DNA of 1,762 nt, taken from the NCBI RefSeq assembly GCF_003334385.1, contig NZ_QOWN01000110.1; one strand, given 5' to 3'. Positions 1 to 1,762 of this stretch are shown piece by piece. The first letter of the stretch is position 1; each line of letters begins with the position of its first letter. The stretch comes from Escherichia coli. GTDB lineage: Bacteria; Pseudomonadota; Gammaproteobacteria; Enterobacterales; Enterobacteriaceae. The position numbers and the translations under genes were made by a program. Below the pieces are notes generated by a model, which saw only the letters and a program-made list of their open reading frames with translations, was not told the DNA's origin and searched no databases.

Positions 1-546
1 GCCCTGGGGATAACGGCAAAACAGATTGCTGATGCCACAGGAAAGAAAAACATGGTGTCGCACTGGTTCAGTGCCAGCCAGTGGCAGCTACCGGACGAAA
101 GCGATTATCTGAAATTACAGGCGCTGTTTGCCCGGGTGGCAGAAGATAAGCATCAGCGCGGAGAACTGGAAAAGCCACATCACCAACTGGTCAGCACATA
201 CAGTGAACTGAACCGGCAGTATACGGAACTGCAGAGTGAATATAAGCATCTGCGGCGGTATTTTGGTGTGACGGTGCAGGTGCCGTACACCGATGTGTGG
301 ACGCATAAACCGGTGCAGTACTATCCCGGGAAACATCCGTGCGAAAAACCGGCAGAAATGCTGCAGCAGATAATCAGCGCGAGCAGTCGTCCGGGTGACC
401 TGGTTGCAGATTTCTTCATGGGGTCAGGTTCGACAGTCAAAGCAGCGATAGCGCTGGGACGTCGTGCAACTGGCGTTGAGCTGGAGACTGAGCGTTTTGA
501 GCAGACGGTCAGGGAAGTTCAGAATTTAGTCAGTCAGAACGGATGA
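1..546 (+). CDS. DNA methyltransferase, beta-class N6-adenine/N4-cytosine family (N6_N4_Mtase-like), C-terminal portion; 5' end probably lies upstream of the window
   Basis: Frame 1 is open from base 1 to the TGA at 544-546, so the ATG at 52 may be an internal Met. The translation carries HPCEKPAEMLQQIISASSRPGDLVADFFMGSGSTVKAAIALGRRATGVELETERFEQ, which fits the HPxxKP ... GD-V-D-F-GSG(S/T)T ... LGR ... G-E C-terminal motif block (AdoMet-binding motif I, FxGxG type) of beta-class amino-methyltransferases. No DPPY motif IV is present in the 182 codons visible, consistent with it lying upstream. GC about 53% by hand count. Confidence 0.8.
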   Translation, partial: ALGITAKQIADATGKKNMVSHWFSASQWQLPDESDYLKLQALFARVAEDKHQRGELEKPHHQLVSTYSELNRQYTELQSEYKHLRRYFGVTVQVPYTDVWTHKPVQYYPGKHPCEKPAEMLQQIISASSRPGDLVADFFMGSGSTVKAAIALGRRATGVELETERFEQTVREVQNLVSQNG

Positions 547-586: not shown

Positions 587-662
587 GGCCCTTTAGCTCA
601 GTGGTGAGAGCGAGCGACTCATAATCGCCAGGTCGCTGGTTCAAATCCAGCAAGGGCCACCA
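587..662 (+). tRNA. ileZ: tRNA-Ile2 (anticodon CAU, presumably lysidine-modified, decoding AUA); ileX/ileZ-like
   Basis: Cloverleaf folded by hand: acceptor GGCCCTT (587-593) / AAGGGCC (652-658); D-stem GCTC/GAGC; anticodon stem 613-617 / 625-629 with loop CTCATAA (anticodon CAT at 621-623); T-stem GCTGG/CCAGC with loop TTCAAAT; discriminator A; encoded CCA at 660-662. The sequence is very close to E. coli ileX as I recall it. The symbol ileZ is the name used for phage-borne copies; Ile2 versus Met identity rests on that similarity, not on the anticodon alone. Confidence 0.85.
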
Positions 663-671
663 TATCACATA

Positions 672-748
672 CCGCCATTAGCTCATCGGGATAGAGCGCC
701 AGCCTTCGAAGCTGGCTGCGCGGGGTTCGAGTCCTCGATGGCGGTCCA
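672..748 (+). tRNA. tRNA-Arg, anticodon read as UCG (decoding CGA, possibly CGG)
   Basis: Cloverleaf folded by hand: acceptor CCGCCAT (672-678) / ATGGCGG (738-744), all 7 bp Watson-Crick; D-stem GCTC/GAGC with a 9-nt D-loop; anticodon stem CCAGC (699-703) / GCTGG (711-715), loop CTTCGAA with U33 and A37, anticodon TCG at 706-708; 5-nt variable loop; T-stem CGGGG/CCTCG with loop TTCGAGT; discriminator T; encoded CCA at 746-748. Unusual C1-G72 first pair. Confidence 0.8.
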
Positions 749-826: not shown

Positions 827-904
827 CAGACTTCCTTGTTTATTCTCGCCGGATGCTTCGTAGATATTTGCAGGCATCTGTATGCAGGGGTATTATTGCG
901 GCAT

Positions 905-1548: not shown

Positions 1549-1564
1549 TGACAGTTGCCTGTCA
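1549..1564. repeat. Perfect palindrome TGACAG-TTGC-CTGTCA (6-4-6), overlapping a consensus -35-like TTGACA (1548-1553)
   Basis: Direct reading: 1549-1554 TGACAG is the reverse complement of 1559-1564 CTGTCA. The same TGACAG / CTGTC arms form the outer stem of the hairpin at 1453-1480. No matching -10 hexamer was found at 16-18 bp spacing from the TTGACA. Confidence 0.5.
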
Positions 1565-1602
1565 GACTGAGCATTTGTTAAAAAAATTTCGCATGGTGAA
1601 TC

Positions 1603-1618
1603 CCCCTGTGCGGAGGGG
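1603..1618 (+). repeat. GC-rich hairpin motif copy 1 (CCCCTGTGCGGAGGGG)
   Basis: 14 of 16 positions identical to copy 2 at 1743-1758. Forms an imperfect stem CCCCT/AGGGG. Confidence 0.45.
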
Positions 1619-1740
1619 CGACTGGTGAACGGTATGATCTCTTTGATGATCGTAAGCGAGAATATGCGGGTTTAGTGTCACCGGGCTGAACTCACCGGGA
1701 GGCACCCGGCACCATGCAATGGCACATAGCGCCACTCTCC

Positions 1741-1762
1741 AGCCCCTCTCCGGAGGGGCTTT
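1741..1762 (+). terminator. GC-rich hairpin motif copy 2 (AGCCCCTC-TCCG-GAGGGGCT), followed by TTT at the window edge; candidate intrinsic terminator
   Basis: Perfect 8-bp GC-rich stem with a 4-nt loop, followed by T residues that run off the window. A full T-tract cannot be confirmed. Confidence 0.4.

Follow-up and report, generated by a model that had tools for sequence, protein, structure and literature searches.

The window analysed here, the whole stretch of 1,762 nucleotides of Escherichia coli DNA, opens with the 3' part of a DNA adenine methyltransferase gene, followed on the same strand by two tRNA genes, a gene for a predicted lipoprotein and, running off the 3' end, an sRNA-like element (Table 1). 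The window is present in its entirety, at 100% identity, in at least 15 complete E. coli genomes among the matches listed, and in NZ_CP053284.1 it maps to positions 15001-16762 of a locus, referred to here as L001, inside a lambdoid prophage that extends from the integrase to the tail genes. An initial annotation, made from the window alone, had proposed a probable phage origin for the gene, and the surrounding lambdoid prophage bears this out. Frame 1 of the plus strand is open for 181 codons from the first nucleotide of the window, and its product begins with ALGITAKQIADATGKK; these codons form the 3' half of a 352-codon gene (L001 14488-15546; WP_016232051.1), the 5' 513 nt of which, including the true start, lie upstream of the window, as had been supposed. 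Several antisense open reading frames of 36-73 codons within nucleotides 1-546 are unsupported; the coding frame on the other strand is strongly conserved. The source databases name WP_016232051.1 and its cluster 'site-specific DNA-methyltransferase (adenine-specific)'.

Table 1 Features of the window (positions are those of the 1,762-nt stretch)
Feature	Position	Strand	Basis
DNA adenine methyltransferase, 3' part (codons 172-352 and stop)	1-546	+	Translation; 100% genome match
Helix-turn-helix, LGITAKQIADATGKK	1-48	+	M.EcoGII model (PMC11551740); weak Pfam HTH_3 match
Gln179	22-24	+	
Larger part of the helical target-recognition/nucleic-acid-binding domain (residues 172-237)	1-198	+	Limits transferred from the M.EcoGII model (PMC11551740)
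Charged helical linker between the recognition domain and the C-terminal catalytic half (residues 238-259)	199-264	+	M.EcoGII model; own low-confidence model
C-terminal half of the Rossmann-fold methyltransferase domain (residues 260-352)	265-543	+	Motif positions; residues 281-347 align to solved enzymes
TGA stop of the methyltransferase, followed by a 40-nt spacer (547-586)	544-546	+	Translation; ARAGORN
tRNA-Ile2 (ileZ, anticodon CAT)	587-662	+	ARAGORN; Rfam tRNA; annotations
tRNA-Arg (TCG)	672-748	+	ARAGORN; Rfam tRNA; annotations
TolA-domain lipoprotein, 142 aa	1027-1455	+	
STnc100-like element, running off the 3' end of the window	1562-1762	+	Rfam RF02076

The initial annotation had also left room for a frameshift or stop upstream that would reduce the gene to a pseudogene fragment. 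The coding sequence in L001 has neither, four homologues share its length of 352 codons, and the E. coli genomes with a 100% match to the window carry an intact gene. Moreover, omega is 0.10-0.19 (Nei-Gojobori) among these four homologues (the methyltransferase of the window and those of Stx2a_1447, phiP27 and a Stx2c phage), also when the part within the window is taken alone, and therefore points to purifying selection on a working protein. The gene is common: it is present in 2027 of 5426 complete genomes of E. coli, and a genome may have as many as seven copies; 264 contigs encode the exact protein, which falls in a 90% cluster of 4845 members. A tblastn search of the phage collection returned about 280 records with a relative at 60% amino acid identity or more, mostly Stx-converting phages, 124 of them 'Stx2a-converting' records. 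The best phage match to the window is 1720a-02, with 95.3% nucleotide identity over positions 1-769; the likeness to Stx phages ends at nucleotide 769, which marks a boundary of recombination shortly behind the second tRNA.

The assignment to the beta class of amino-methyltransferases, proposed from the fragment, holds for the whole protein. The full protein matches Pfam PF01555 (N6_N4_Mtase) over residues 29-340 (E=4.7e-43), and the fragment in the window does so by itself, over model positions 115-219 of 221, with E=1.7e-24, far beyond chance; the only other profiles matched, in Pfam and NCBIfam, are YhdJ-like and CcrM-like models. The order of motifs, with DPPY at residues 35-38, FFMGSGST at residues 309-316 and an insertion in between, is that of the beta class, and by these sequence features the gene of the window, carried by a lambdoid prophage, codes for a beta-class amino-methyltransferase. 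The fragment had been said to carry the C-terminal catalytic motifs: a C-terminal block characteristic of the class is indeed present, with a conserved HPCEKP (nucleotides 334-351) and FFMGSGST (nucleotides 412-435), but the latter is the SAM-binding motif I (FxGxG), and the codons of the catalytic DPPY are found some 400 nt before the window begins.

The beta-class enzymes of solved structure (9c3u/8urk, M.RsrI, CcrM, M.MboIIA and DpnA) align to residues 8-142 and 265-347, with E values of 1e-25 to 1e-14, and show no alignment to the central residues 113-280, which, because only the flanking halves are matched, we regard as a family-specific insertion. In the published AlphaFold model of the related M.EcoGII, the catalytic domain is formed by residues 1-134 and 260-349, and the target-recognition domain, a four-helix bundle with a helix-turn-helix, by residues 160-237 (PMC11551740). 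Since the window begins at residue 172, about 85% of this recognition domain is encoded within nucleotides 1-198, contrary to the earlier view that the target-recognition region lies outside the window. Likewise, ALGITAKQIADATGKK, which had been read as a possible linker, corresponds in the M.EcoGII model to the helix-turn-helix of the recognition domain, where Pfam HTH_3 also gives a weak match (residues 167-195). Our own AlphaFold model, built on an alignment of six sequences, is unreliable (mean pLDDT 50.6); it has residues 146-257 as helical, with pLDDT values of 62-81, and includes a predicted helix at residues 231-257.

M.EcoGII is the closest characterised relative of the protein. Against M.EcoGII as given in Table S1 of PMC11551740, 328 of 348 aligned residues (94%) are identical, a figure that is approximate, and probably 94-95%, because our reference was machine-read from the supplementary PDF and contains evident reading errors (NHHIWA for NHIIWA, TKVPQ for THKPVQ and RRRA for RRA). 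An exact look-up of the sequence corrected by hand gave no match, and in the phage collection no record exceeds 93.7% identity to it (tblastn). The alignment has no insertion or deletion before residue 276. [quoted passage not shown] Both ancestors are active and non-site-specific, although SUPREM is only 71% identical (PMC11551740). M.EcoGII and its 95%-identical paralogue M.EcoGI come from prophages of E. coli O104:H4 C227-11 (Murray et al., 2018; PMC5778455). M.EcoGII is a non-specific adenine methyltransferase that is silent in the lysogen and deleterious or toxic if its expression is constitutive; the family to which it belongs is very large in E. coli prophages, and phage 1720a-02 is among its carriers (PMC5778455). 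Published work indicates that it acts as a dimer. Homologues of 92-94% similarity are labelled 'nonspecific' in a table based on REBASE (PMC6602927), and no motif could be attributed to such homologues in the methylomes of lysogens (PMC6602927; PMC5778455). From its sequence, we infer that the enzyme of the window acts on adenines in essentially any sequence context; the 'site-specific' label misleads, as the closest characterised relative, about 94% identical, is explicitly non-specific. The methyltransferase is thus a catalogued and abundant orthologue of a characterised, commercially used enzyme, and is already known: the family has been purified, engineered and sold as a chromatin-footprinting reagent, and the gene itself, catalogued in RefSeq and present in more than one in three complete genomes of E. 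coli, brings nothing new to biology.

The order of genes around the methyltransferase was compared in four loci (L001, Stx2a_1447, phiP27 and a Stx2c phage) and is conserved: Q, in some cases followed by inserted genes, then a 198-bp open reading frame (orf65), the methyltransferase, ileZ, one or two arg tRNAs, stx2AB or another moron, an esterase gene of the nanS-p type and the lysis genes. In L001, the product of Q (13092-13913) is a homologue of lambda Q (E=4e-41). Some 66 residues with many CxxC pairs are inserted in it (residues ~117-205), and it is paired with a pR' core that, at the specified positions, is identical to that of lambda. The sequence GGTAAATTTGCCCTAACGATGGG, found 26 nt past the stop codon of Q, corresponds at all specified positions to the -10 element and initial transcribed segment of lambda pR', the lambda counterpart being GGTAAATTTGACTCAACGATGGG. 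Its core, GGTAAATTTGnnnnAACGATGGG, is the same as in lambda pR' and, with none expected by chance, has a single occurrence in the 31.7-kb locus. In lambda, Q loads onto RNA polymerase at the AACGAT element, a sigma-dependent pause signal. The likeness to pR' was found by eye, against lambda, and then confirmed by the pattern search; a scan for consensus sigma-70 promoters did not call the site, and a MAFFT alignment of the spacer between Q and orf65 with lambda was uninformative. A first terminator, a strong GC hairpin followed by a run of T, lies at L001 13996-14011 (z=-4.0 for the segment), and a second, terminator-like hairpin, weak by folding energy (z=-0.7), lies at 14324-14341, after the 198-bp open reading frame. 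Because the methyltransferase gene is found downstream of Q, the pR'-like core and the two terminators, we place it in a Q-dependent late operon; its expression is probably Q-dependent and late. This predicted position agrees with published accounts in which lysogens do not express M.EcoGI and M.EcoGII, and in which their constitutive production is harmful. In the literature we found no measurements of expression or of virion methylation for natural prophage carriers under induction, and a ciprofloxacin transcriptome paper lists no prophage methylase of the M.EcoGII kind.

The 65-residue product of orf65 (L001 14140-14337), encoded just before the methyltransferase in all four loci, belongs to phrog_331, a group of unassigned function; its winged-helix signals are weak (TrmB, 1.3e-3; MarR_2, 0.017), and lambda orf-64 is not a relative. 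We considered it as a controller or partner protein and rejected it as an obligate partner, because it is present in only 55 phage records, SfV and mEp460 among them, against about 280 with the methyltransferase.

Downstream of the methyltransferase, the tRNA pair follows directly on the same strand, in a neighbourhood that is conserved in Stx phages. Since ARAGORN places the beginning of the first tRNA at position 587, the spacer is exactly 40 nt, in agreement with the distance given in the initial annotation. The first tRNA, with anticodon CAT, is called Met by ARAGORN and tRNA-Ile (ileZ) in RefSeq and in the Stx phage records, and is presumably read as Ile after lysidine modification; the two tRNAs found here compare with three (ileZ-argN-argO) in many Stx2a phages. 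The only sizeable open reading frame further downstream codes for a predicted lipoprotein, with a signal peptide followed by LTTGC with Cys20, residues 54-141 of which are a close copy of the C-terminal domain III of TolA (PDB 1s62, 3qdp and 1tol; E ~1e-25). Its gene occupies the slot of stx2AB in Stx phages and is preceded by a sigma-70-like site (window 867-896). In the phage collection the lipoprotein is rare, being found only in mEp460_ev081, at 81% nucleotide identity. As colicins and the g3p of filamentous phages bind TolA domain III, the lipoprotein might serve as a periplasmic decoy for either. The element at the end of the window matches STnc100 strongly, with 164.8 bits (E=1e-38; gathering score 47), has two GC-rich hairpins and is located upstream of a prophage gene for a SASA-family (nanS-p-like) esterase.

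None of these genes is a restriction gene. What follows the methyltransferase (the tRNAs, the lipoprotein gene, the sRNA-like element, the esterase and the lysis genes) has nothing nuclease-like, as had been noted for the window itself, and no restriction gene is found up- or downstream within the 30 kb context. Among seven to eight neighbouring proteins, PADLOC reported no match to a restriction-enzyme model; methyltransferase models alone were matched, by the methyltransferase itself. Hence, the adjacent cognate endonuclease gene by which a Type II restriction-modification system is recognised is missing, and the gene was rightly described as an orphan.

Taken together, the gene of the window is best explained as an orphan of the M.EcoGI/M.EcoGII family that would be expressed late and would methylate phage DNA broadly, against restriction, a reading to which we give a probability of roughly 0.8. 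The enzyme is a SAM-dependent beta-class N6-adenine methyltransferase, probably dimeric, and would have little or no sequence preference. In the lysogen, the gene would remain silent behind the terminators; after induction, RNA polymerase modified by Q would pass the terminators and transcribe it, so that the replicating phage DNA would be heavily methylated before packaging. The progeny genomes would then resist the many m6A-sensitive Type I, Type II and Type III restriction systems of the next host. The analysis establishes the family and motifs of the enzyme, the intact frame and its purifying selection, the conserved order of genes, the sequences of promoter and terminators and the want of a restriction partner; the absence of specificity, the late timing and the benefit against restriction are the parts of this account that we infer.

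A different question is whether the gene is of any present use to its carriers. It could be a stranded relic, an intact open reading frame in a defective prophage, with neither useful expression nor a present function; this would overlap with the main explanation as to the identity of the protein. In NZ_CP053284.1, a DnaT-like replication gene and the portal gene are annotated as frameshifted (L001 6921-7968 and 28040-30624) and a DUF1627 gene as truncated, and the prophage is probably defective in that strain; given the frameshifts in the portal and replication genes, the methyltransferase may never serve a productive lytic cycle in that host. M.EcoGII itself has been described as residing, unexpressed, on a cryptic prophage (PMC5778455). 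However, the reading frame is of full length and identical in many genomes, as the number of contigs with the exact protein attests, the family is under purifying selection and present in Stx phages that are inducible and have been sequenced, and the Q, pR'-like and lysis modules around the gene look intact. We therefore consider a relic possible but unlikely.

Considerably less probable is that the enzyme is an orphan with sequence specificity which, produced in the lysogen, has an epigenetic effect on genes of the host or the prophage. In its favour, the automated name of the exact protein has it as site-specific, the central domain contains a helix-turn-helix, a motif often used in sequence recognition, and there are about 20 differences between this allele and M.EcoGII. 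The few conservative substitutions in the recognition domain, relative to the non-specific M.EcoGII and in part common to the active, non-specific ancestors, argue against a change in specificity, as does the persistence of non-specific methylation in SUPREM at its much lower identity (PMC11551740). The gene, moreover, is located behind a late promoter and terminators, and homologues leave no detectable motif in lysogen methylomes (PMC6602927; PMC5778455). The initial annotation had raised the possibility that the enzyme alters host gene expression; because its relative M.EcoGII, at about 94% identity, is non-specific, toxic when constitutive and silent in the lysogen (PMC5778455), the enzyme is unlikely to exert epigenetic control over host genes in the lysogen.

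It has to be considered, too, that M.EcoGII also methylates RNA in vitro, more weakly than DNA (PMC5778455). Because of this activity, and because the gene shares one transcription unit with two tRNAs located 40 nt downstream, the enzyme might conceivably also place m6A on the phage tRNAs, on late mRNAs or on host RNAs during lytic growth, and so, besides protecting DNA, affect the translation of late or toxin genes; we consider this very improbable.

YdfU/DUF968 (L001 11656-12714), the only nuclease-like neighbour, is encoded 1.8 kb upstream of the methyltransferase; it matches phrog_96, 'HNH endonuclease' (E=2.9e-164), and its C-terminus shows an HNH-like Cys/His motif. The protein, encoded between a hok-like region and RusA/Q, appears to be uncharacterised; P1 (pdcB) and phages of Vibrio and Klebsiella have distant relatives of it. 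That YdfU, on the strength of this match and of its proximity, would be the nuclease of a restriction-modification pair with the methyltransferase as the modification half has next to no chance of being correct: in the Qin prophage of E. coli K-12, a YdfU 79% identical to that of L001 lies beside Q, and the methyltransferase is absent from the whole prophage; of the 175 phage records with a relative of YdfU, which extend to Vibrio, Klebsiella and Yersinia phages and to P1 (pdcB), just 11 are 'Stx2a-converting', compared with 124 for the methyltransferase; YdfU matches no PADLOC restriction-enzyme model; and its gene lies in the early, nin-like region, with RusA, Q, the promoter and the terminators between the two. 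The orphan status is supported by precisely this, that YdfU occurs independently of the methyltransferase and in the early region, beyond Q, the promoter and the terminators.

The orphan, broadly methylating enzyme favoured here can be set against several known systems. The solved beta-class enzymes (M.RsrI, 1eg2; CcrM, 6pbd; M.MboIIA, 1g60; DpnA, 5hek; and 9c3u/8urk) share with it the two halves of the catalytic fold, but act on specific sequences, and nothing related in sequence to the insertion formed by the recognition domain and linker (residues 113-280) occurs in any of them. Dam-like methyltransferases of lambdoid and Stx phages, such as M.EcoVT2Dam, are likewise orphan N6-adenine enzymes, but form a separate, GATC-specific family (PMC6602927) and are encoded by a different gene of the early region. 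Stx2a_1447 has both genes, the Dam-like one at positions 288-941 of its locus (L002); no Dam-like gene is among the annotations of the prophage in NZ_CP053284.1. Membership of the methyltransferase in the Dam (GATC) type was considered and rejected, on the grounds that its profile matches are confined to the PF01555, YhdJ-like and CcrM-like models and that the Dam-like gene is a separate locus. The Mom protein of phage Mu is a functional analogue only: it is silent in lysogens, toxic when artificially expressed, produced late and protective of progeny DNA, but the protein is unrelated, and its chemistry and regulation are different. Mom makes a carbamoylmethyl adduct on adenine. A comparison of Mom with M.EcoGI and M.EcoGII has been published (PMC12707154).

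With M.EcoGII, the protein has in common the beta-class order of motifs and an identity of about 94% over its full length, including the recognition domain with its helix-turn-helix, and, as with both M.EcoGII and M.EcoGI, it is borne by a prophage without a restriction partner; apart from the substitutions, the C-terminus here is three residues longer (...NLVSQNG, as opposed to the printed ...DLIV). To the methylases of lambdoid and Stx phages (1720a-02, Stx2a_1447, phiP27 and Stx2c phages) it is 87-96% identical in amino acid sequence, with an equal length of 352 residues, and its gene occupies the same slot of the late region, between Q/orf65 and the ileZ-arg tRNAs. In contrast to the Stx phages, in which stx2AB follows the tRNAs, the prophage studied here has the gene for the TolA-domain lipoprotein at the stx position, and lacks the third tRNA (argO).
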